From Verrucomicrobiota bacterium (GTDB taxonomy: Bacteria > Verrucomicrobiota > Verrucomicrobiia > Limisphaerales > UBA11358): a DNA stretch of 64,000 nt. The position numbers and the translations under genes are program-made. The stretch lies in contig JBEKYY010000012.1 in assembly GCA_049510395.1 (NCBI GenBank), positions 7,530-71,529 of the forward strand. Reading direction: 5' to 3'. Below the pieces are notes generated by a model. It was given only the letters and a program-made list of their open reading frames with translations, ran no database searches and was not told the origin of the DNA. This document shows, piece after piece, positions 43,240 through 56,595 of the stretch (positions within the stretch are counted from its first letter, which is position 1; every line of letters starts with the position of its first letter).

Positions 43240-43947
43240 TCACCGCGCCGCGTCATGCGGCAGGGCGAACACCAGAAAGTATTCCCGCGGCAGAAAAGTG
43301 AAACGTTCCACCAACCGAAAGCCGGCCGCCTGAAGTTCCGTCACAACCTGCTCTTCCGGGAGACGATATTTTTTGGGCGGTCCCGGCGCGTCGGCGTCCG
43401 GACGGTATTCCAGGATGGCAACGCGCCCGTTTGCCTTGAGTGCCCGGCGCAACCGCTCCAGGTAAACCGCGCGATCGCTGATTTCCTTGTAAACGCTCGA
43501 GAAAAAGGCCAGGTCGCACGAACCGTCCGGCAGCCGGGGGTCATCGAACTCGCCGCGGATCACCGTCACGTTGGTCAGGGCGCGCTGCTCCACCCGTTGG
43601 GTCAGCTTGCGGATCATCACGGGTTGCACGTCGGTGGCGTAAACGTGGCCGTTGGTCCCGACGCGCCGGGAGAACTTCTCTGTGAAGTAGCCCCCGCCCG
43701 CGCCAATGTCCGCCACGACCTGTCCTGGGGACACCTCCAGCGCATCGAGCACCTGCTCCGGCATCTGCCATTGGTCCCGCTTCGGTGATTCCAGATAGAA
43801 AAGGTAGAAGGGATTGAAAACGTTGTGCCCGTGATAATCGGTCATGGTCGGACCGCAGGAAACCATCAGCCACGGCAGCAACAACACCAGCCAGGGCAGA
43901 ACGGAGGGGCTGCGGAGTTTCATAACGATTGTCTTGCCAGGCTGCAT
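43240..43947 (-). CDS. Class I SAM-dependent methyltransferase with N-terminal signal/lipoprotein-like peptide
   Basis: Motif I VVADIGAGGGYFT. N-terminus LPWLVLLLPWLMVSCGP suggests export. Alternative start MKLRSP at 43923. Confidence 0.8.
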   Translation of the reverse strand: MQPGKTIVMKLRSPSVLPWLVLLLPWLMVSCGPTMTDYHGHNVFNPFYLFYLESPKRDQWQMPEQVLDALEVSPGQVVADIGAGGGYFTEKFSRRVGTNGHVYATDVQPVMIRKLTQRVEQRALTNVTVIRGEFDDPRLPDGSCDLAFFSSVYKEISDRAVYLERLRRALKANGRVAILEYRPDADAPGPPKKYRLPEEQVVTELQAAGFRLVERFTFLPREYFLVFALPHDAAR

Positions 43948-45551: not shown

Positions 45552-45717
45552 AAAGCTGCTCGATATCAGGCAGCTACTCGAAACACGCCGACTTGTCCCG
45601 CCGTAGTCCCGCTTTGCGGGACGAAGGTGGAAGTCACCGTGCCGTCGCGGGATGATTGGGAAAAGGATTGGGAGGAAAAATCCCACAACAGAGTCCCATC
45701 GAAGCAACCACCCGGCC

Positions 45718-47058
45718 TTACGGCTTGTCGTTATGAATTACAATCTGTTCGGCCATACGAGAAACCAGTGGAAGATATTTCCAAATCTTTATGTCATTAG
45801 CTCTCGTGGGTAAAATGACTCGACTTTCCCGCTTTTCACGTGCATGAACTAGGCAATTTCGGATCTTTGTAACTTGGTCGATAAGTTTTGGTGTCCACAT
45901 TTCACACCAGCCTTCTTCGGTTAAGTCAGATGAGATTAATTTCGGAACTACAAATCCTCCCTCAAAGGTTAAATCAGCGCAAAAAAACTTTTTATTTTGT
46001 TCGATGTCCTTCCATAAGATTTTTGGCTCGCAAAATTCCTCAATTACTCTGCGAATGCGTCCCTCTTCATTTTGAGCCGCATCGGTGAGCACTGAAAGTA
46101 GTTCACTGACACGTTCATCCGCACAATTAATGAACGAAGGGGAACGCAATAATCGTGTCAGGGAACTTTTAGTTTTGGCATCAATAAAATAAAACCCCGC
46201 ATATTCAAAAACTTGGTAGTAATATATAAATGCAAATCTTGGTTCGCTTGATCGGGCAACTTCAATCAGTCGTAACAATATATTGTCTGTAGGTTTAAAA
46301 GAAAGCTCCGCCGGAAAACATCCTTCCACATAACGCAACGGCTCTACGGCTCTTTCTTTTATATCTTCTGTCGGGCGTACTACAATAATTGGAGATTTCC
46401 TATCGTAGTACCTCATAAGCAGATTTAGATGTGTCGAAAATAATTCCCAGTCAATTTCCTTCAACGGGACAGAAGATTTAACAAAAAAGCAACGTGGGAC
46501 ACGCTTTTGGAAAAATTCTTTTACCTGGTCCGGCAATTCTTTAATTCGTTGGCAATCTCGAAAGGCGACTAGTTGCGGAACTGTTTGTTCCAAACCACTT
46601 GGCAATCGACGATAGTATTTAGAAATCAAAAAAAGTTGTTTGGATGGTTCACGAAAGACACATTCAAAAGCAACTCCTTGGAAATGAAATTTAAAGGCCC
46701 TGTCAACATATCCAGACTCTCTTTCGTTTTTGGGGTCTAAAAACGCAAAAATAAATTCTGCCTCGTTTTTGTCGAGATGCATCAGTGCGTCAAAACGAGG
46801 GTTTATCAGAAGGTGCTGAAGCTGTTCAATAGCAGCTGTATCGTTTAATGGAATTGAAATCTGGCCGTCTTCTTGTCCCCACGGTTGATTAATAATAAGT
46901 TTATCATCTTCCTTTGAAATTTTGACGTGAGGATTGTTTGAGGAAAACTTTTTAACACCTGAAGGATATGAGGAATCGCTTTCCATAATTGTTTCATAAT
47001 TTGAATCGAAATATGATGTGTTGCCAAGCAAATTTCGCCAGCAACAGCCCATTTGCAC
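45718..47058 (-). CDS. Hypothetical 446-aa protein with a C-terminal HEPN-like domain (Rx4H motif RNCLVH)
   Basis: AT-rich gene (about 40% GC by spot count versus more than 60% in the flanks). RNCLVH is encoded at 45844..45861, in the C-terminal helical region ...FAFIYYYQVFEYAG...KIRNCLVHAREKRE. No recognisable N-terminal domain. It lies 48 nt downstream of the methylase gene on the same strand. Confidence 0.6.
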   Translation of the reverse strand: MQMGCCWRNLLGNTSYFDSNYETIMESDSSYPSGVKKFSSNNPHVKISKEDDKLIINQPWGQEDGQISIPLNDTAAIEQLQHLLINPRFDALMHLDKNEAEFIFAFLDPKNERESGYVDRAFKFHFQGVAFECVFREPSKQLFLISKYYRRLPSGLEQTVPQLVAFRDCQRIKELPDQVKEFFQKRVPRCFFVKSSVPLKEIDWELFSTHLNLLMRYYDRKSPIIVVRPTEDIKERAVEPLRYVEGCFPAELSFKPTDNILLRLIEVARSSEPRFAFIYYYQVFEYAGFYFIDAKTKSSLTRLLRSPSFINCADERVSELLSVLTDAAQNEEGRIRRVIEEFCEPKILWKDIEQNKKFFCADLTFEGGFVVPKLISSDLTEEGWCEMWTPKLIDQVTKIRNCLVHAREKRESRVILPTRANDIKIWKYLPLVSRMAEQIVIHNDKP

Positions 47059-47106
47059 ACGTTGTGCTTCCTCGCAATGAGAACTGAATCCAAAAGGCCG
47101 ACGAAG

Positions 47107-48099
47107 TCATTCCAGCCTCCGCTTGGATCTGCTATGTTCAGCGCCTCCTCCTCGCTGTATTTTCGGCGAGCCTGTATGATATAAAGTGGGTTCTTCGCGG
47201 AAAATTCCTCCATCTTCAACCCAAGCTAAGTCTCTCCCAATTAGAAGCTCGTTCATCTCAGCATGATGGGTGTTTTTCATCGCTACCGGCTTCGTCGCAA
47301 AACCATGTCGCTTCGCAAGGGCGCAAACCTCCTCGGCGTTGTCGTAGGTCAATAGAAAGTCGCCACGGAGTTTTTCGCAAAGTGAGAACAAACGTTCGTG
47401 GTCAACTTCGCAATGCGTGTAAAGTCGTGACCCGGCGCTTTTGCCGCCAGCCGTGTAAGGAGGATCAATGAAGAACACAGCGTCCGGTTCGTTCTGAAAA
47501 CGTGCGAGTTCTTCAAAAGCGTCGCTGTGTTTGAATTCGATTCGGTGTGCAATGTACCCGATGTCCGTTATTCGCTTGGCGATGGTTTGTGGATACCAGC
47601 GGGAGACAATGCCCTTCCCGTTTTCACCATGCTTGAGGACACCAGCCCCTTCAGCTAGGATTCCGCCGTGCGCTGTCCGGTTTTTCAAGACTGTTTGGAA
47701 AGCAAGCTCGCGCTGGCTTCTTGGCGTCTTTGCAAATTCTGCTTTGGCTGATTCGATGGTGAGATCAAAAGAAAGGATGCGCTTTGCAAGCCACTCTGCA
47801 TCACCGCCGAGAATCGTTTTCCAGACGGACGCAATCTGCTGATCGAGTTCCACCATGACAACTCGGTCGGCCAGTTGCTCGAAAGCGGCGGTCAAGCTGA
47901 TGATTCCCCCACCAGCAAATGGTTCAACTAGAACCGCTGGCTGTCTGGGCAGACTCATCATCCAACGACGGAAAAGCGGCACGAGCCATGTCTTCCCGCC
48001 CGGATAGCGAAATGGGCTACGCTGAGGAACAGAAGCAACGTTTACTGGCTTCTCGCGTTCCTCAGTTTCAAATTCTGGCAGCAAAAAAGTCTGTGACAT
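47107..48099 (-). CDS. DNA adenine methyltransferase, Dam-like (D12 class, m6A)
   Basis: FRYPGGK near the N-terminus, EPFAGGG (SAM motif) and the catalytic FFIDPPY motif. The last ~35 aa look non-conserved, so the 3' end may be extended. Confidence 0.85.
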   Translation of the reverse strand: MSQTFLLPEFETEEREKPVNVASVPQRSPFRYPGGKTWLVPLFRRWMMSLPRQPAVLVEPFAGGGIISLTAAFEQLADRVVMVELDQQIASVWKTILGGDAEWLAKRILSFDLTIESAKAEFAKTPRSQRELAFQTVLKNRTAHGGILAEGAGVLKHGENGKGIVSRWYPQTIAKRITDIGYIAHRIEFKHSDAFEELARFQNEPDAVFFIDPPYTAGGKSAGSRLYTHCEVDHERLFSLCEKLRGDFLLTYDNAEEVCALAKRHGFATKPVAMKNTHHAEMNELLIGRDLAWVEDGGIFREEPTLYHTGSPKIQRGGGAEHSRSKRRLE

Positions 48100-48102
48100 A
48101 AC

Positions 48103-48987
48103 TCATTTGCCAAAAGGATTTTCAAGCGTCCGATTTATCGGCGGCGTTTCCAGTTTCTCATCAACCTTCGTCTGAAGCTGGCGCAAGAAATCTTCCATCT
48201 TGCCGGGGCGCGATTTCGTAATCTGGTTGAGAGCAGGTTCAAACCGGGTATAAACAGTCCGCTCGCGGAACATCTCGTAATGCACGCCGGCAGTTGTTGG
48301 CGGCTTCAAATCGTAAATCAGCCAAGCGATGTCAGCTTTCTCTTTCGGAACTTCAGGCAGTTTTGGAAGTGTATTAAAAAATCCTGTATTGAGAGCAACG
48401 GCGGTCTTCTTGCCCCATGCGTTGATGATACCGCCTTTGAAGATCAACTGCGGGGCTAGACGCTTACGGGAAGATGACAGGTAATCTGGCCGCGGATAAT
48501 TTTCTTCAGTCGTCCAATCCATGCTAGCGTTTTTCGCGGGAGCTTCCATGTAATGCTCAAACGGATTCCGCACGTTCCCGGAAATGTAAACGGCCTGCAC
48601 TTCCAGCGCGCCAAAATCATAAACCTTGCCCGTCTTGTCGTAAGCACAGAGGACGATGTCAATGTTGCCAGCTGAGCCGCCGTCGCCGTCTTTCAAGCGG
48701 ACTTCCGTAAGTGTTGTCCATGTCGCACTGGCTGGGAAAAAGAAATCCGCCGCGTCGTCCGCAATCATCCAGCCTTGCCGGAAGCGAATCGGGCAAGTGA
48801 TGACGACTTCGTTTTCCTGGAACACGCTGCAAACCCCAAGTGGGTCTTGCGCTTTGTCTTTCGTACAGTTCGGAACCTTGTTGTTGAACGGGCAAAGACG
48901 CTTTGTTCGATGGCGGTTCGCTCCAGCACTCATGTCGCTAACCGGAAACCCGAAAACTTCTGCAAGCGGATGAAGAATCTTTGCCAT
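48103..48987 (-). CDS. Putative type II restriction endonuclease, NotI-family-like
   Basis: N-terminal Cys4 pattern (CPF...C...GVC...CPIRF) preceded by AEVFGFPV, a central ALEVQAVYISG motif and LSSSRKRLAPQLIFKGG. These resemble the NotI Fe-Cys4 / catalytic layout as I recall it. The stop lies 3 nt before the methylase start. Confidence 0.55.
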   Translation of the reverse strand: MAKILHPLAEVFGFPVSDMSAGANRHRTKRLCPFNNKVPNCTKDKAQDPLGVCSVFQENEVVITCPIRFRQGWMIADDAADFFFPASATWTTLTEVRLKDGDGGSAGNIDIVLCAYDKTGKVYDFGALEVQAVYISGNVRNPFEHYMEAPAKNASMDWTTEENYPRPDYLSSSRKRLAPQLIFKGGIINAWGKKTAVALNTGFFNTLPKLPEVPKEKADIAWLIYDLKPPTTAGVHYEMFRERTVYTRFEPALNQITKSRPGKMEDFLRQLQTKVDEKLETPPINRTLENPFGK

Positions 48988-49402: not shown

Positions 49403-50065
49403 ATGAAAAAATACCTCTCAATATCAATCGCAAGCATTTTGGCCTTAAGCGCCCCCGGTATCGCCAAGGCACAGTTTTCCATTACCGCCACCATTGGTGG
49501 CGTTCCCACTGTGAGCGGCGCTTCGTTAGAGAATTTTGACGAACCGACGCCGTCCATTCTGACACTTTCCGGTCCCGCCTATCTTGTCACGGGAACGGTC
49601 ACGCCCGAGTTCAACTGCGCCCAGCCCTACTTCTCCGGTTCGACAGCAGCTTTTTTTGGCGAATCCCCGACCTATGGCCCAGATGACAGCCAATACGTCG
49701 CCGTCTGTTTTGACGGTTCGGCGACACTCAGCTTTTCAACCCCACAGCTTTATTTTGGACTCCTTTGGGGTTCAGTTGATACAGCCAACACCCTTACTTT
49801 CTACGACAGTGCGAATAACGTCATTGGTAGCGTTTCTGGGTACGACATTCCAATATACTATGGCGACAGCGGCCCGAGTGGTACCTTTTATGTCAACATT
49901 ACTTCCACGACCCCATTTTCGAGTGTTGTCGTCAGCACTCCGGCTGCAAATGCATTCGAGTTCGATGATGTTGCTTACGCACAGGTAGTTCCAGAACCCG
50001 CCAGCCTGTCATTGCTGGCCGTCGGCATGTTTGGGATAACTCTCTTGCGTCGGCATCAGCGTTAA
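49403..50065 (+). CDS. PEP-CTERM sorting-domain protein
   Basis: Signal peptide (ILALSAPGIAKAQ) and C-terminal VPEPASLSLLAVGMFGITLLRRHQR (PEP motif + TM helix + Arg-rich tail). Confidence 0.85.
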   Translation: MKKYLSISIASILALSAPGIAKAQFSITATIGGVPTVSGASLENFDEPTPSILTLSGPAYLVTGTVTPEFNCAQPYFSGSTAAFFGESPTYGPDDSQYVAVCFDGSATLSFSTPQLYFGLLWGSVDTANTLTFYDSANNVIGSVSGYDIPIYYGDSGPSGTFYVNITSTTPFSSVVVSTPAANAFEFDDVAYAQVVPEPASLSLLAVGMFGITLLRRHQR

Positions 50066-50285: not shown

Positions 50286-50360
50286 TGGAGCCTGCTGTCA
50301 GGATTGAACTGATGACCCACGGTTTACAAAACCGTTGCTCTACCGCTGAGCCAAGCTGGC
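50286..50360 (-). tRNA. tRNA-Thr (anticodon UGU), 75 nt with encoded CCA
   Basis: Reverse complement: GCCAGCT TG GCTC AGCGGTA GAGC A ACGGT TTTGTAA ACCGT GGGTC ATCAG TTCAATC CTGAC AGCAGGC T CCA. A cloverleaf is recognisable. Two mismatches, A4:A69 in the acceptor stem and A49:C65 in the T stem. Folded by hand only. Confidence 0.75.
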
Positions 50361-50405: not shown

Positions 50406-52745
50406 CTAAAGAGATTGCGTACCCGTGCTGAAAGGTTTGATGACCGCCGCACCATGGGTTCCGCGCGGGCAGGTGACGATGGCCAGCACGGGTTTGCTGG
50501 CCGCCTCAACCGGTGGAAACCCCAGCGCCAACGCCAGATCCAGCAGCGGCTGCGCTCCCTCCAAACATCCCGCAACCGGCGCCGTCCGCACCACGCGCCC
50601 CGGCCACGCCGGATGCAACTGTTCCAGCAGGGATTGCGGCCCGTGAAAACAGACCGTGCCAACATGATCGCGCCCAAGGCCAGCCTGCCTGAGCGCGTCC
50701 TCAACGGCCTCTTCCAGCCCCCGCTCACCGGCGGCGCACGCGAAGCCGCAAATTTCAGCCAGAAGCTTCGCACCGCGCCGGCCGGCATGCCGCGCCGTTT
50801 CAAGCATCAGCACGACCGCGCCTTCGCCGGGCGGAATTGCATTTTCGCCGGAGAGCAAACCCGCTGAAAAGCTGTCCGCGAGAATGCGGTCCGAAAGTTC
50901 ATCCACCGCGCCGCACAGGATGGCCCCGGTGTGGCCGCAACGCAGCGCGGCCAGGGCCGGCCCCAAACCGAGCAACCCCCCGCCCGGCCCGGGACTCAAG
51001 GTCAGGTTGTGGCCCGACAGCATGAGCGCGCGGCACACATTGCCCGCCACGGAACCGGGGACGATGTAGGGGAATGCCGTCAGTTGTGTCACCTGGCGGT
51101 TGTTCGACAGGAACGAAGTCAGATACTCCGACTCCGCCCACGACGGCCCGGCGGACAGATTCAGGAACAAACCCAGCTTCGCCAGTGCGGACGGCCTCTC
51201 GGAAAATCCCGCTTCCCGGATTGCCAGACGCGCCGCCACCGTGGCCCAACGGCTCGAACGGTCCATGTGCCGGAGGTCCAGTCGGCGGTCAAATGTTTCA
51301 ATTCCTTTCTCATCCACCATCCCTGCAAGGAGAGGTGGAAGTCCGGGAATGGAAACGGTATGCACGACCGATTTACCGTTTCGCTGTTCGCGATCCAAAG
51401 CCTCCACGCCAATGCCCGCTGCGGAAACGACTCCGCACGCCGTGATGAAAATGGGTTCGCTTTCGTCACTGGTAGGGACGCGCTGCCGCGCGTCCTGGTC
51501 CCGCAAAGCGGGATCGGCCCTACCATGATCGGGATTCGACGACACCGCGAGCACCATACTCGCGTTATGTCCGCCAAATGCCGAGTTGTTGCTGAGGAAA
51601 ACTTGCGGCGACGGCCAGGTCCGTCCGACCTCCGGCACGCAGTCCAGCGCGCAGCCTTCGCGCGGCCCGGTAAAGTTGGCGGTGGGCGGCAGGACGCCCG
51701 ACTTCGCGCACACGATGCCGGCGATGGCTTCCACCGCCCCGGCCGCGCCCAGACAGTGGCCGACCATGCTCTTGGTGGAACTGATGGGCGTGCGTTCCGC
51801 CTGTGCGCCGAACACTTTGCGGACGGCTTTGGCCTCGGCCTTGTCGTTGGACTCGGTGCCTGTGCCGTGGGCGTTGATGTAAGAGATTTGTTCCGGCGAA
51901 AGTCCGGCATCGGCGAGCGCGCGTTGCATGGCCGTTGCCAGGCCACGTCCCCCCGGTTCGGGCGCGGAGCAATGAAACGCATCGTTGCTCATGCCCGAGC
52001 CGAGAATTTCAGCGCAGACAATCGCCCCGCGCTGGTGCGCGCCGGCAAGCGATTCCAGAAACACAAACGCCGCCGCCTCGCCCAGGTTCAATCCAAACGG
52101 CTTTGAAAACGGAGCGCACTTGCCTTCACTCGTCGCTTTGAGGCCCTCGAAACCGGCGAGCGTGCTGGTGGAAAAGGCGTCGGAACCGCCGGCCAGCGCC
52201 GCATCGAGCATCCCACACCGAATCAGGTCGGCCGCCAGCGCCATTGCCGCCGTGCTGGCGGAACAGGCGGTTACCACTGTTGTGGACAAACCTTGCACAC
52301 CAAGTTCGCGGGCCAGCACTCGCGCGCCGGTGTAATACCGCTTGGCCAGCAACTCCTCTTCAGTCAACCGCGGGTCGCCGCGGATGATCCGCTCGTAGTG
52401 AGATTCGATGAGCAGCATCGGCCCGGAACACGTCGCGAAGATAAGCCCCAGCCGCCGGCCAAAATTTTCCGGGCACACGACGGCGGCCGCCAGCGCCTCG
52501 CGCGCTGCCACCATTGCCATCTGAATGTGCCGGTCGAACCCGGCCAGTTCCGGCAGCGGTTCCAGCGCAGCGGCGGCGGTCCCGGTCAGCAGTCCGGCAT
52601 AGCGGGATTTGAAATGCGCCGCCCGGGGGTCGGTGATGGGCGACAAACAACAGACGCCCGCCGTGATGTTCCGCTGGAACTCGACGACGTTGGCGCCCGC
52701 GCCGGACAGCACGCCCAACCCCGTGATGACAACGCGGTGGCTCAT
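50406..52745 (-). CDS. Fused ketosynthase + chain-length-factor-like (degenerate KS) protein
   Basis: Start MSHRVVITGLG at 52745. KS half has an intact triad (TACSAS, NAHGTGTESND, MVGHCLG). The second KS-fold half lacks the active-site Cys (LSPGPGGG). Confidence 0.8.
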   Translation of the reverse strand: MSHRVVITGLGVLSGAGANVVEFQRNITAGVCCLSPITDPRAAHFKSRYAGLLTGTAAAALEPLPELAGFDRHIQMAMVAAREALAAAVVCPENFGRRLGLIFATCSGPMLLIESHYERIIRGDPRLTEEELLAKRYYTGARVLARELGVQGLSTTVVTACSASTAAMALAADLIRCGMLDAALAGGSDAFSTSTLAGFEGLKATSEGKCAPFSKPFGLNLGEAAAFVFLESLAGAHQRGAIVCAEILGSGMSNDAFHCSAPEPGGRGLATAMQRALADAGLSPEQISYINAHGTGTESNDKAEAKAVRKVFGAQAERTPISSTKSMVGHCLGAAGAVEAIAGIVCAKSGVLPPTANFTGPREGCALDCVPEVGRTWPSPQVFLSNNSAFGGHNASMVLAVSSNPDHGRADPALRDQDARQRVPTSDESEPIFITACGVVSAAGIGVEALDREQRNGKSVVHTVSIPGLPPLLAGMVDEKGIETFDRRLDLRHMDRSSRWATVAARLAIREAGFSERPSALAKLGLFLNLSAGPSWAESEYLTSFLSNNRQVTQLTAFPYIVPGSVAGNVCRALMLSGHNLTLSPGPGGGLLGLGPALAALRCGHTGAILCGAVDELSDRILADSFSAGLLSGENAIPPGEGAVVLMLETARHAGRRGAKLLAEICGFACAAGERGLEEAVEDALRQAGLGRDHVGTVCFHGPQSLLEQLHPAWPGRVVRTAPVAGCLEGAQPLLDLALALGFPPVEAASKPVLAIVTCPRGTHGAAVIKPFSTGTQSL

Positions 52746-52752
52746 GCTGGCG

Positions 52753-55700
52753 TTATGGCTGCCACCCTTTTCGCAGCGCCACGGCGAAGTTGTAGCCAAC
52801 GTCACTGCTGGCGAGCGCGAGGATGTATTCCGGCGTCCCGCATCCTTCCCGCTGGTCCAGCTCGCTGACGCCCGTGCGTTGCGGCCACAGTTTGCCGCCG
52901 GTTGCCAGCGCTTCCAGCGCGGCGGCCAGACTCACCAGAATGGAGGCCGACTCAATGTAGCCGGTGTTGAATGTGGTCGTTACCAGCGGCAACTTTTTGA
53001 AATCCGGGCCAAACAATTCTTCGCACACCGTGATTACCTTGAGGTCCTGGCGATTGCCCTGCGGCGCCCAGACGATGAGTCCGATTTGCGATGGCGTCAC
53101 TCCGGCGCGGGTGAGTGCGAGTTGCGCGGCGTGTTTCAAACCTGCCGGGCCGTTGTTCGGCGCGGTGAATCCCTCCGCGTCCATGCTCATGCCGTAACCG
53201 AGCACTTCCGCCAGCACGGCGGCGCCGCGCCCCAGCGCATTCGTGGCGGTTTCCAGCACCAGCGTGGCCGCGCCTTCGCCGAGCGCTTTCTGTTTTTCCC
53301 GGTCAAGCCGCAGGCGGTAATCCGACTCTTCCGCGCCCGCGTAGAGGAAGCCAATGCCGTCGTAGTTGTAAAACGTCTGCGCGTACACCTCGTCCGCCGC
53401 CCCTGCCAGGATGGCGCGGGCGCGTTTCCCGGCCAGCGCATCGAACGCATAGGCCAGACTTTGCAACCCGGCGTGCGGCCCGGCGGAGAGCGAGGCATTG
53501 ACGCCTTTGAGATAAAGCGCGTTGGACACCCAGCCAGCAGTCGAGTTCGCCACGATGTTGGAAAAACTGGTGACGTTGGCCTGAAACGAATCGCTGCTGA
53601 ACACGCTGTCCATGTGGCCCATTTCCGACGGGCCATTGCACACGCCCATGACCACTCCGATTTCCCCGGCATGGCCCGGCGAAACTTTCAACGCGGCGTG
53701 CTTCAGGGCCAGCCGGCTGGCAGCCACGGCAAACCGGCTGATGTGGTTCAAGCCCGCAAAATCAATCCGGCGGTCCACCTCGGCGGCTTTGAAGGACGCG
53801 ACTTGTCCCACCAATCGCGCGCGTTCGGCCCGCAGCGGGAAGGCGGCCACGGGTGTCAGCCCCACGGCATGGTTGCGAAGCTGCGCCAGCGTTTTCTGGA
53901 TGCCCAACCCCAGCGACGTGACCGCGCCGACGCCGGTGATGACCACGCGTTCGTTGATTTCCTTGCGCGCGGGTACGGGCGAATCCCACCTGGTCACAAC
54001 CACCGCGGCGTTGTTGCCGCCGAAAGCGTAGTTCGCTGAAATGAAGGCGTCGTATTTTTTGGGGCGCGCTTCGTTCGGCACGAAGTCGAGCGCGCAACCG
54101 GGACGCGGCCCGCTGAAGTTGAGCGTGGGCGGAATGAAACCGGCGTTCATCGCCAGCAATTGCGCGGTGGCTTCCAGGATGCCGGTCACGCCCATGCAAT
54201 GGCCGAAAAATGATTTGGTCGAAACTGCCGGCAGCGGATGTCCGTCCATGAACGCCGCCATGCCGCGCGCTTCGGCTTTGTCGTTGGCCTCGGTGCCGGA
54301 ACCGTGCGCGTTGATGCAGCCGAGGTCGCTGATTGAAAGTCCGGAATCCTCCAGCGCAGCGCGCAAGGTGCGTTGCGCCCCCGAACCGCGCGGGTCAGGC
54401 GTGGTGGGATGATAGGCGTCGGACGTGGTCGCATGACCGGCGAGACGGCCGAGACAGCGCGCGTGGCGAAGAATCGCCTTCTCCATGTCCTCGACCACCC
54501 AGAAGCACGCGCCTTCGCCGACGTTCATGCCGTAGGGCGTGGAGAACGGCGCCATGCGGCCGGGCGCAGTGGCCTTGAGCGCGTCGAAACCGGACATGTT
54601 GGCCACGCAAAGAACATCCGCTCCGCCCACCAGCACGGTGTCGTAATAGCCGCGGTTGATGAGCGTTTGCGCCAGTCCCAGCGCGACAGTGGTGGAGGAA
54701 CACGCGGTGGTGATGACCCACGTTTCGCCGCCGAACTTCAGCGCGCTGGCCAGCGCCTTGCCAAAACCGTAAAGCTGCGCCTGCAAGTTCATGCGCTCGT
54801 CGAAGGCGCGCGAACTGCGGCCGTGTTTCCAGGCGTATTCGGCTTCGGCGGAACAAAGCCCGCCGTTGCAGGTGCCAAGCACCAGCGCGATGTCGCGGCG
54901 GATTTCTTTTCCGTCCCGTTGCAGTCCGGCGTCGCGCAGCGCCCGGCGCGCGGCGGCGATGGCGTAGCGCAGGTAAAGGTCTTCGTATTCCTCGTTCTCG
55001 GCATCGGTGAGCCAGTCGCGCAGGTTGAGATGCTTCGCTTCGCCTCCCAGGTTGGAACGGAAATGGCGCGCGTCGAATCGCGTGATGGGCCGGATGCCAT
55101 GCCGGCCGTTGCGCAACGCCTCCGTCACCGTGGACGCGTCGTTCCCGATGGGGCTGATGAGGCCAAGGCCCGTCACGACCGCTTGCTGGCGCACGCCCTG
55201 GCGTTGGAGCGGCTTGCCGACCACTTGCGCGCCATCCTTCCAGGTCGCGGGTTCGAGGTGCGCGGCGTGCTGCGTTTTCTGCGCGCGAAAGAATTCGCGC
55301 CAGAGCCGGATAAATTCTTCGCGCAGCCGCTCCGGGGTGAAATTCATGGGGCGCGCGACCACATGAGCGCCGTTGTAATGCGACCATTGATGGTCGAAGA
55401 TGCGGCCCTGCCGTTTCATGCGGTCCCAGTGGACGGAGCCGGGATACGGCGTGAAAATGAAGAACTCCGCCGTGCGAATGCCGGCCTCCGCATACAACGC
55501 CAACACCCGGTCCACGACATCCGGTTCATCCCAGTCCCGGCCGATGCCGCAGGAACCGAAAAACCGGATGCCGCGGTCTTCCAGATTCCGGACGAGGTCC
55601 TTGAGCATCTGCCGCTCGCGGGCTTCGCCTTTGATGGCGCGGATGGAAACCGGGTCCACGTTCATCGTGCAGTAGAAATTCCGCACGCCGGCGCGGGTCG

Positions 55701-56595
55701 CCAGATCGAGAAAGCCGGTCTCGGTGTTCAACGCCATCGTGGAGGAGACGAAATACTTTTTGCCCAGCGGCTCCACCGCGCGGAACAGGGCGCGGGCATA
55801 GTCGTTGATTTTCCGCTGCGGAAAGAAAAGCGTGTCGTCGGCCAGATACACGTTCTCGTGTTTGAGCGAGCGCAGTTCCTCGACGACGCGTTCGATGGGC
55901 CGGAAGCGGATGCGCCCGCCCATTTGCGCCGGGAGCGAACACATGCCGCAGGTGTAGGAACAGCCCCGCGTCAGTTGCACGAGGTCTTCGTCCCAGTCGT
56001 AGAAATCGTTCGTGTAAAAAATCTCGCGCCTGGGAATCGGCTGCGCGGCCAGGTCGGCGGAACTGCCGCCCTGGTAAACCGGTTTCAAAGTGCCGGCTCG
56101 GGCGTCCGCAAGAATCCGCCGCCAGGTGGCCTCGCCTTCGCCAACGTTCACCGAGTCTGCATGTTTAAGACATTCCTCCACCATGAACGAGGGGAACAGC
56201 CCGCCCATGACGACCTTTTTGCCGCGGGCGCGAAAACCGTCGGCAATTTCAAACGCGCGGGTGGCCTGGGGTGTGAAGCAGTTGATGGCGACCAGGTCCG
56301 TTGGGGCGTCGAAGTTGAGTGTCTGCCCGCTGTTGTCATCCACCAGTTCGATTTCAACCTCCGGCGGCGTCAACGAGGCAAGGATGGGGATGCCCAGCGA
56401 AGGCGGGGTGGTGAAGTTGCCCAGGAAATAGTCCACCAGCCCCTGGTCCAGCTCCGGCAGGCCAGTGAGAAACTTTTCAAACCGGGGATAAACAAATGTG
56501 ACTTTCAATTGGGCTCTGCCGGACCACCCGAGCGCGACGAGCGGGGTAACAGTACCGTTCGGACAAAACTGGACAAGAAATTTCTCTTTCACCAC
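52753..56595 (-). CDS. Fusion of B12-binding-type radical SAM domain + ketosynthase + chain-length-factor-like domain (~1250-1280 aa)
   Basis: VAINCF...VVMGG...NVGEGE (B12-binding-like). CSYTCGMC encoded at 55939..55962 (CxxxCxxC). KS triad TACSS / NAHGSGTEAND / FFGHCMG. The C-terminal KS-fold lacks Cys/His (SAGPHAG, WAPQGN). Possible alternative TTG start at 56508 (LKVTFVYP). Confidence 0.8.
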   Translation of the reverse strand: MVKEKFLVQFCPNGTVTPLVALGWSGRAQLKVTFVYPRFEKFLTGLPELDQGLVDYFLGNFTTPPSLGIPILASLTPPEVEIELVDDNSGQTLNFDAPTDLVAINCFTPQATRAFEIADGFRARGKKVVMGGLFPSFMVEECLKHADSVNVGEGEATWRRILADARAGTLKPVYQGGSSADLAAQPIPRREIFYTNDFYDWDEDLVQLTRGCSYTCGMCSLPAQMGGRIRFRPIERVVEELRSLKHENVYLADDTLFFPQRKINDYARALFRAVEPLGKKYFVSSTMALNTETGFLDLATRAGVRNFYCTMNVDPVSIRAIKGEARERQMLKDLVRNLEDRGIRFFGSCGIGRDWDEPDVVDRVLALYAEAGIRTAEFFIFTPYPGSVHWDRMKRQGRIFDHQWSHYNGAHVVARPMNFTPERLREEFIRLWREFFRAQKTQHAAHLEPATWKDGAQVVGKPLQRQGVRQQAVVTGLGLISPIGNDASTVTEALRNGRHGIRPITRFDARHFRSNLGGEAKHLNLRDWLTDAENEEYEDLYLRYAIAAARRALRDAGLQRDGKEIRRDIALVLGTCNGGLCSAEAEYAWKHGRSSRAFDERMNLQAQLYGFGKALASALKFGGETWVITTACSSTTVALGLAQTLINRGYYDTVLVGGADVLCVANMSGFDALKATAPGRMAPFSTPYGMNVGEGACFWVVEDMEKAILRHARCLGRLAGHATTSDAYHPTTPDPRGSGAQRTLRAALEDSGLSISDLGCINAHGSGTEANDKAEARGMAAFMDGHPLPAVSTKSFFGHCMGVTGILEATAQLLAMNAGFIPPTLNFSGPRPGCALDFVPNEARPKKYDAFISANYAFGGNNAAVVVTRWDSPVPARKEINERVVITGVGAVTSLGLGIQKTLAQLRNHAVGLTPVAAFPLRAERARLVGQVASFKAAEVDRRIDFAGLNHISRFAVAASRLALKHAALKVSPGHAGEIGVVMGVCNGPSEMGHMDSVFSSDSFQANVTSFSNIVANSTAGWVSNALYLKGVNASLSAGPHAGLQSLAYAFDALAGKRARAILAGAADEVYAQTFYNYDGIGFLYAGAEESDYRLRLDREKQKALGEGAATLVLETATNALGRGAAVLAEVLGYGMSMDAEGFTAPNNGPAGLKHAAQLALTRAGVTPSQIGLIVWAPQGNRQDLKVITVCEELFGPDFKKLPLVTTTFNTGYIESASILVSLAAALEALATGGKLWPQRTGVSELDQREGCGTPEYILALASSDVGYNFAVALRKGWQP

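Follow-up and report, generated by a model that had tools for sequence, protein, structure and literature searches.

We analyzed three adjacent genes in a stretch of 64,000 nucleotides (nt), here called the window, from a UBA11358 bacterium (Verrucomicrobiota; assembly GCA_049510395.1, contig JBEKYY010000012.1, positions 7,530 to 71,529 of the forward strand). Two of them, R and M, form a predicted restriction-modification (R-M) pair. The third, gene 3, encodes a two-domain protein of an unnamed family whose C-terminal domain resembles the HEPN RNases. The genes are located as follows, in window positions and with protein lengths in amino acids (aa).

48103..48987, minus strand: R, predicted NotI-family Type II restriction endonuclease (REase), 294 aa, from the Pfam NotI match, plasmid relatives, and invariant residues
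47107..48099, minus strand: M, predicted D12-class (Dam-like, alpha-type) N6-adenine DNA methyltransferase, 330 aa, from Pfam MethyltransfD12 and PADLOC
45718..46986, minus strand: gene 3, two-domain protein, 422 aa, from homologues, an AlphaFold 2 (AF2) model, and gene calls in other assemblies

The locus and its restriction-modification pair

The open reading frame (ORF) listing of the window places the three genes in the same direction in the order R, M, gene 3. As an initial annotation of this DNA had described, they are tightly packed: M starts 3 nt after R stops, and 48 nt separate the M stop from GTG 47058. The 446-aa ORF that the same annotation had assigned to gene 3 exists and opens at this GTG; the homologues, however, favor a shorter protein. 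The 82 homologues found at E ≤ 5e-37 are 420 to 435 aa long, and their alignments begin at Met25 of the 446-aa ORF. Those of the three nearest relatives start with ME.., and gene 3 reads MESDSS from ATG 46986. Independent gene calls on contigs of the same population give mostly 422 aa and in some cases 444 aa, the length obtained from ATG 47052. Because the homologue lengths and most of the independent gene calls agree, ATG 46986 is the likely start, yielding 422 aa and therefore a gap of 120 nt between M and gene 3. A longer form is conceivable, since a Shine-Dalgarno-like GAGGAAG lies 8 nt upstream of GTG 47058.

R matches the Pfam family NotI (PF12183) with an E value of 1.3e-59 and a score of 201.9 bits (cutoff, 22), and an alignment with four annotated NotI-family enzymes shows no variation at C32, C41, C53, C65, D110, or in E129-x-Q131. 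The hallmarks of this family, namely a Pfam score above threshold, an N-terminal Cys4 pattern, the catalytic D...ExQ motif, and an adjacent methylase, are thus all found for R; NotI itself, too distant, was not recovered by phmmer of R against PDB sequences. M matches Pfam MethyltransfD12 (PF02086) at 1.7e-10 and 41.5 bits, likewise above the cutoff of 22. It contains FRYPGGK and, as in D12-class enzymes, has motif I (VEPFAGGG, residue 57) ahead of motif IV (DPPY, residue 212). M scores 40.5 against the NCBIfam Dam subfamily model (cutoff, 114.85) and therefore belongs to the Dam class without being a Dam orthologue. Its best PADLOC match is PD-Lambda-5_B (8.6e-41), and it also matches MTase_II (9.8e-26). 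Both assignments made in the initial annotation, a NotI-like enzyme with Cys4 and E.Q motifs and a D12-class N6-methyladenine (m6A) methylase, are thereby borne out.

Relatives of the pair are carried by plasmids. On a Thermus brockianus plasmid, an annotated NotI-family REase 61% identical to R is directly followed by an adenine methylase 57% identical to M and then by an integrase. Achromobacter pEST4011 and a 4-kb Aeromonas plasmid likewise have an REase gene ahead of one for an adenine methylase, and none of the three pairs is accompanied by a HEPN gene. Because the pair recurs on three unrelated plasmids, R and M together represent a known, self-sufficient Type II module. Judged by sequence, the R-M pair is a conventional two-gene Type II system whose cleavage and specificity are predicted: R, a PD-(D/E)xK-type enzyme with a Cys4 metal cluster, would cut unmethylated sites, and M would shield the host DNA by m6A modification. 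Given an adenine methylase as the partner, the recognition site must presumably contain an A and differ from that of NotI, GCGGCCGC.

The sole GC trough of the window, at 46 to 50 kb, coincides with this locus. The low-GC stretch, which we refer to as the islet, extends from ∼45.56 to 50.28 kb and is bordered by a tRNA gene. Two further features were annotated here.

50286..50360, minus strand: tRNA-Thr(TGT), 3′ end toward the islet (ARAGORN; Rfam, 56.4 bits)
45669..45685, minus strand: terminator-like hairpin, 33 nt past the gene 3 stop (consensus scan, weak evidence)

Three classes of composition can be distinguished. The host genes have a GC content of 0.59 to 0.65 and a GC content at third codon positions (GC3) of 0.72 to 0.79. 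R (0.514), M (0.521), and a PEP-CTERM protein gene form a second class with a GC content of ∼0.52 and a GC3 of 0.52 to 0.57. Gene 3, with a GC content of 0.396 and a GC3 of 0.338, stands alone and is, as had been noticed initially from spot counts, more AT-rich than both the R-M pair and the genome. The differences of 12 GC points and ∼20 GC3 points between gene 3 and the R-M pair argue for their separate acquisition. The PEP-CTERM gene (49403-50065, plus strand) lies between tRNA-Thr and R; it may belong to the same acquired islet because its GC content of 0.52 matches those of R and M.

An att-like repeat of tRNA-Thr was sought at the far border of the islet and was not found, and the remaining repeats in the region resemble chance. 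An Rfam scan for RNA antitoxins or riboswitches returned the tRNA only. Promoter and terminator scans gave counts at or below the shuffle expectation, and the hairpin after gene 3 is the only positionally suggestive prediction. When the flanking M24 peptidase gene was used as an anchor in a search for an empty-site strain variant, the cassette was present in 20/20 contigs. A strain variant in a Joint Genome Institute (JGI) metagenome (L030) keeps the R-M-HEPN cassette and is without a SAM-dependent methyltransferase gene that is located in the window at 43240-43947, between the M24 peptidase gene and a DUF465 gene.

Domain architecture of the gene 3 protein

The full AF2 model of the gene 3 protein, built with 71 sequences, has a predicted local distance difference test (pLDDT) score of 91.3 and a predicted template modeling (pTM) score of 0.79. 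An alpha/beta N-terminal domain (N-domain) is connected by a low-confidence linker to an all-helical C-terminal domain (C-domain). The parts referred to below are listed in the numbering of the 422-aa protein.

46402..46986, minus strand: alpha/beta N-domain, residues 1 to ∼195, putative sensor or regulatory domain
45721..46311, minus strand: all-helical, HEPN-like C-domain, residues 226 to 422, from AF2, topology, and profile matches
46204..46206, minus strand: codon of E261, invariant acidic residue of the predicted HEPN helix 2 (YYQxxEY)
45844..45861, minus strand: RNCLVH, an R-N-x3-H motif with R376, N377, and H381, containing the predicted HEPN catalytic Arg and His, from the translation

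In the published definition of the HEPN fold (Anantharaman et al. 2013, PMC3710099), helices 2 and 3 are separated by an insert, helix 3 ends with an Rx4-6H motif whose R is followed directly by a polar residue (N, D, or H), and helix 2 carries a conserved acidic residue. Modeled alone (pLDDT, 90.2), the C-domain comprises helices at residues 10 to 20 and 24 to 40 (the latter with E36, equivalent to E261), an insert at 41 to 131, a helix at 132 to 156 that ends with RNCLVH (R151, H156), a loop, and a helix at 170 to 193. The insert, ∼90 residues between helices 2 and 3, is helical with a hairpin. This topology matches the published definition, as compared by secondary structure and order only, without 3-D superposition. 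The spacing of the motif and the polar residue after R are likewise as defined (R376-N377-x3-H381), and none of R376, N377, H381, and E261 varies among 111 sequences (71 close and 40 distant members), at identities down to 24%. Because both the topology and the conservation of the motif fit, the modeled C-domain is likely a HEPN domain. The initial annotation had made the same assignment from RNCLVH, which is encoded exactly at the positions it gave.

Of the PADLOC models, only two match gene 3, both in the C-domain: DzbB, at 1.5e-7 to 4e-8 over model positions 188 to 329 of 341, and CARF_HEPN, at 1.6e-3 over the motif helix. Both matches favor the HEPN assignment, as do subthreshold matches of the family to four different HEPN models of Pfam, all on the motif helix. 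The gene 3 protein itself has no match in Pfam or NCBIfam. Among Pfam families, MauJ (PF17419, "methylamine utilization protein") comes closest in more distant members; 11 of the 40 match it, at E values down to 9e-6, under its cutoff. Should this match be real, MauJ could in turn be a HEPN-type domain. The automatic UniProt names of the members P0062 and P0260 ("ApeA N-terminal domain-containing," "RiboL-PSP-HEPN domain-containing") were not reproduced with the Pfam copy used, a mismatch that may result from differing model versions or borderline matches; the RiboL-PSP-HEPN name agrees with the HEPN assignment.

Neither sequence profiles nor Foldseek detected a relative of the N-domain in Pfam, NCBIfam, PADLOC, PDB, or BFVD, in agreement with the initial description of this part as matching nothing recognizable. 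Its conserved polar residues (N18, H70, E77, R96, C109, N188, and D195) are kept family-wide. An identity as a PD-(D/E)xK nuclease was considered and rejected, as no ExK follows D66...E77 and no REase fold was matched.

The gene 3 family and its genomic neighborhoods

With a profile of the N-domain alone, the number of representative clusters (50% identity) detected was 452 at E ≤ 1e-3 and 384 at E ≤ 1e-10. Given these clusters and the 82 homologues described above, gene 3 is, by the measure of sequence conservation, a real gene and a member of an unnamed family. Nearly all of the full-length members listed are 405 to 440 aa long, and the two-domain architecture therefore appears to be fixed rather than modular. 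The only listed member with an extra domain is P0158 (586 aa), which has a 175-aa N-terminal extension without a Pfam match. Four proteins of 229 to 260 aa that would seem to consist of the C-domain only (P0241, P0244, P0252, and P0260) begin within the N-domain tail (...NFxMxYYDxxSP...) and appear to be truncated gene calls or decayed copies, not a separate architecture; their motif reads RNALSHG[RK]DQ instead of RNCLVHAREKR. At two loci (L010:10001-11235 and L020:1214-2439), the homologues align in two pieces in different frames, which suggests that they are probably frameshifted or decaying.

To characterize the neighborhoods, ∼5 kb around the homologue was examined at 24 loci, consisting of 20 genome loci and 4 loci of the closest relatives. 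The 20 genome loci represent ∼10 phyla, including Verrucomicrobiota, Desulfobacterota, Chloroflexota, Planctomycetota, Spirochaetota, Bacteroidota, Acidobacteriota, and Pseudomonadota. Relatives of R or M of the window were found at 0/20 of these loci, and no R-M gene of any kind (DNA methylase or REase) was found at any of the 24. A motif screen of 227 neighbor ORFs, followed by Pfam searches of the candidates and the largest neighbors, also revealed no DNA methylase or restriction component. No neighbor family is common to several of the 20 loci, and scanning 108 neighbors in bulk against Pfam and PADLOC disclosed no recurrent theme, with only sporadic matches to SduA (2 members), MkoA, kinase-type models, and two integrases. 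The ten codirectional genes directly adjoining a homologue encode an amidase, MscS, ComEC, a DUF4349 protein, NadC, a nitroreductase, a racemase, GyrA, a DUF433/MerR protein, and a glyoxalase. The closest relatives (52 to 61% identity) lie beside genes for PDZ and PEGA proteins, beside a DNA-alkylation repair gene, or beside genes for a TIR protein and an integrase. In total, defense or mobile genes (TIR, Shedu-like SduA, MkoA, and integrases) neighbor the homologue at a minority of the loci, which makes a role in defense plausible.

The composition of gene 3 is shared by its family. At 23/24 loci, the homologue is AT-shifted relative to its flanks, with a mean difference of −10.5 GC points, in hosts with GC contents of 0.32 to 0.68. 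The shift is thus a family-wide signature, pointing either to horizontal mobility or to selection for AT-richness.

Two neighboring modules or one coupled system

We interpret the locus as a small islet of horizontally acquired DNA beside tRNA-Thr in which two independent modules lie head to tail, a Type II R-M system and a mobile single-gene HEPN effector, and assign this reading a probability of roughly 0.6. R-M and gene 3 would accordingly be neighbors and not parts of a single coupled system, and their co-location would be confined to this organism. A conserved coupled module is not indicated, because none of the other loci examined shows the linkage, the R-M pair stands alone on plasmids, and gene 3 and R-M are far apart in composition. 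Adjacency in one genome is no evidence of coupling and in this case would be coincidental.

By analogy, gene 3 is probably an ApeA-like abortive-infection RNase that is gated by its N-domain. ApeA (Gao et al. 2020) is triggered to cut tRNA anticodon loops by a ligand that fills the pocket between its N-terminal and HEPN domains (10.64898/2026.01.26.701840). It resembles gene 3 in being a single protein without partner genes, in its C-terminal HEPN domain with inserts between the core helices, and in an N-terminal region without detectable homologues, and it acts by abortive infection; we regard it as the best analogue on which to model the mechanism of gene 3. The two differ in that ApeA, as described, is a mostly helical protein of ∼580 aa with three domains (N, Mid, and HEPN), whereas gene 3 encodes 422 aa with an alpha/beta N-domain. 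PADLOC (PADLOC-DB v2), which includes an ApeA model, gave no ApeA match for gene 3, Pfam ApeA_NTD1 matched neither 75 members nor the N-domain consensus, and HEPN_Apea reached only E values of 0.0066 to 0.08, in two gene 3 relatives. By these tests, gene 3 is not a member of ApeA, on the basis of size, the fold class of the N-domain, and the lack of a matching ApeA model.

In the proposed mechanism, the HEPN domain would be a metal-independent RNase, and R376, N377, and H381 would form a composite active site with E261 upon dimerization. The N-domain, with its conserved polar patch, may keep the nuclease off until an infection-linked cue is sensed. Once activated, the protein would cut RNA of the host or the phage (tRNA or mRNA) and growth would stop, resulting in abortive infection as with ApeA. 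For gene 3, we thus infer RNase activity, dimerization, a sensor role of the N-domain, and a function in defense through abortive infection. More tentatively, and at somewhat less than even odds, gene 3 could be an undescribed single-gene antiphage system in which a new alpha/beta sensor fold, responding to an infection-derived ligand or nucleic acid, controls a DzbB/MauJ-like HEPN RNase. Such a system would occur as a lone AT-rich gene in housekeeping regions of at least ten phyla and, in this organism, behind an R-M operon with which it may be cotranscribed.

A number of observations weigh against an independent HEPN effector with a role in defense. Foldseek returned nothing at E < 0.1 when the full model was compared to PDB and BFVD and the C-domain to PDB, and in PDB no match had E < 1, the best HEPN match being HepT (7ae6), at E 2.9. 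Searches of PDB sequences with gene 3 profiles (phmmer and hmmsearch) gave chance matches only. With consensus sequences and 75 members as queries, HEPN_RiboL-PSP, HEPN_Apea, and Ribonuc_2-5A all matched the same motif helix below their gathering thresholds, and the best Pfam relative of the C-domain is MauJ and not a named HEPN family. Most homologue neighborhoods are of the housekeeping type, which makes the usual defense-island argument weak, and no relatives of gene 3 were found in phages or plasmids by tblastn or in IMG/VR by a pattern scan. As for independence, the genes are codirectional in the window and the consensus scan predicted no terminator between M and gene 3; the two may be cotranscribed and may have some local functional interplay.

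The last points also speak for a coupled system. The initial annotation had proposed that R, M, and gene 3 form an R-M-linked second-line defense module, that is, one R-M/abortive-infection unit like PrrC with EcoprrI or PD-lambda-5, in which the R-M proteins or the methylation state would restrain the HEPN protein until a phage disables restriction. Besides the tight codirectional packing without a terminator-like site between M and gene 3, precedents speak for such a unit, since linkage of HEPN to R-M is a known theme with at least 16 clades, and in PrrC with EcoprrI a HEPN RNase gene lies beside R-M as it does here (PMC3710099). In those cases, however, the linkage takes the form of conserved neighborhoods or fusions and the N-domain of PrrC is an ABC-ATPase, whereas gene 3 is linked to R-M in a single population and its family is otherwise found among housekeeping genes. 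Gene 3 was not classed as a PrrC-type R-M guard because linkage to R-M recurred at 0/24 loci, including those of the 52 to 61% identical homologues. The best PADLOC match of M, the methylase model of the two-gene prophage system PD-lambda-5 (Vassallo et al. 2022), is suggestive as well, as this system has been described as a compacted "RM+Abi" (PMC9519451) and listed as HEPN containing (10.1101/2024.10.26.620412), with a methylase related to M and a HEPN-bearing partner. Only its B model is present, in M; neither R nor gene 3 matches PD-Lambda-5_A at E ≤ 1, and the true orthologues of M are paired with NotI-family REases, so the cassette was not assigned to PD-lambda-5. A third connection is through DzbB, the only significant defense-database match of gene 3, which comes from Dazbog, an abortive-infection system (Millman et al. 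2022) that responds to DNA methylation (10.1101/2022.08.27.505566). This match covers only the C-terminal ∼40% of the model, and the N-terminal half of DzbB is unlike the N-domain of gene 3. Dazbog further needs DzbA (DUF262), which is neither in the cassette nor recurrent near the homologues; with the partner absent and the match partial, identification of gene 3 as Dazbog was rejected. We found no published biochemical role of DzbB. Together with the autonomy of R-M pairs on plasmids and the very different compositions of gene 3 and R-M, these results make a coupled unit quite improbable. What survives of the proposed linkage is sporadic and weak: TIR, SduA, or MkoA genes adjoin some orthologues, and R-M genes none. 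With respect to R-M, this is the outcome that the initial annotation itself had named as contrary to its proposal.

Two other explanations retain separate modules or leave R-M aside and concern the function of gene 3. One is that it encodes a mobile selfish toxin or a stress-responsive RNase outside phage defense, active in growth arrest, addiction, or niche RNA processing, and that its adjacency to R-M reflects a shared integration hotspot. The prevalence of housekeeping neighborhoods over the few defense-like ones fits this idea, as does the absence of copies from the phage, plasmid, and viral collections searched, and the probable frameshifts in L010 and L020 suggest the frequent decay expected of costly genes. 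Against it, a single gene without an antitoxin-sized partner would be hard to maintain as an addiction module, and a conserved N-domain fixed to a nuclease points to regulated activation comparable to that of ApeA. The AT shift and patchy spread over phyla also resemble those of known defense genes, and TIR, Shedu, Mokosh, or integrase genes adjoin some of the loci, so we consider this explanation unlikely. The other is that the C-domain is inert or has a non-RNase function, for example, a MauJ-like one or, as in some HEPN relatives, ligand or nucleotide binding, and that the polar residues of the N-domain are the true active site. Such a view would account for MauJ being the best Pfam relative, for the lack of a significant HEPN match with Foldseek, and for the family-wide retention of H70, E77, R96, C109, N188, and D195 in the N-domain; the weak matches to CARF_HEPN, HEPN_Apea, RiboL-PSP, and KEN, on the other hand, all fall on the motif helix, and we judge a non-RNase C-domain to be highly improbable.

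The R-M pair itself is ordinary. If gene 3 is confirmed, a new family of ∼450 clusters in many phyla, unannotated in Pfam, NCBIfam, and PADLOC, would join the single-protein HEPN immune effectors. The new N-terminal domain could then reveal another infection trigger, as the ApeA pocket did for deoxydinucleotides, and DzbB would gain a probable assignment as a HEPN-type RNase effector.

On the other side of the tRNA gene, the window contains two large minus-strand genes, of 799 aa (50406-52805) and 1280 aa (52753-56595), with duplicated ketoacyl-synthase domains. The 1280-aa gene product additionally has weak N-terminal matches to B12-binding and radical-SAM domains. The pair constitutes an unusual lipid or polyketide-type locus.

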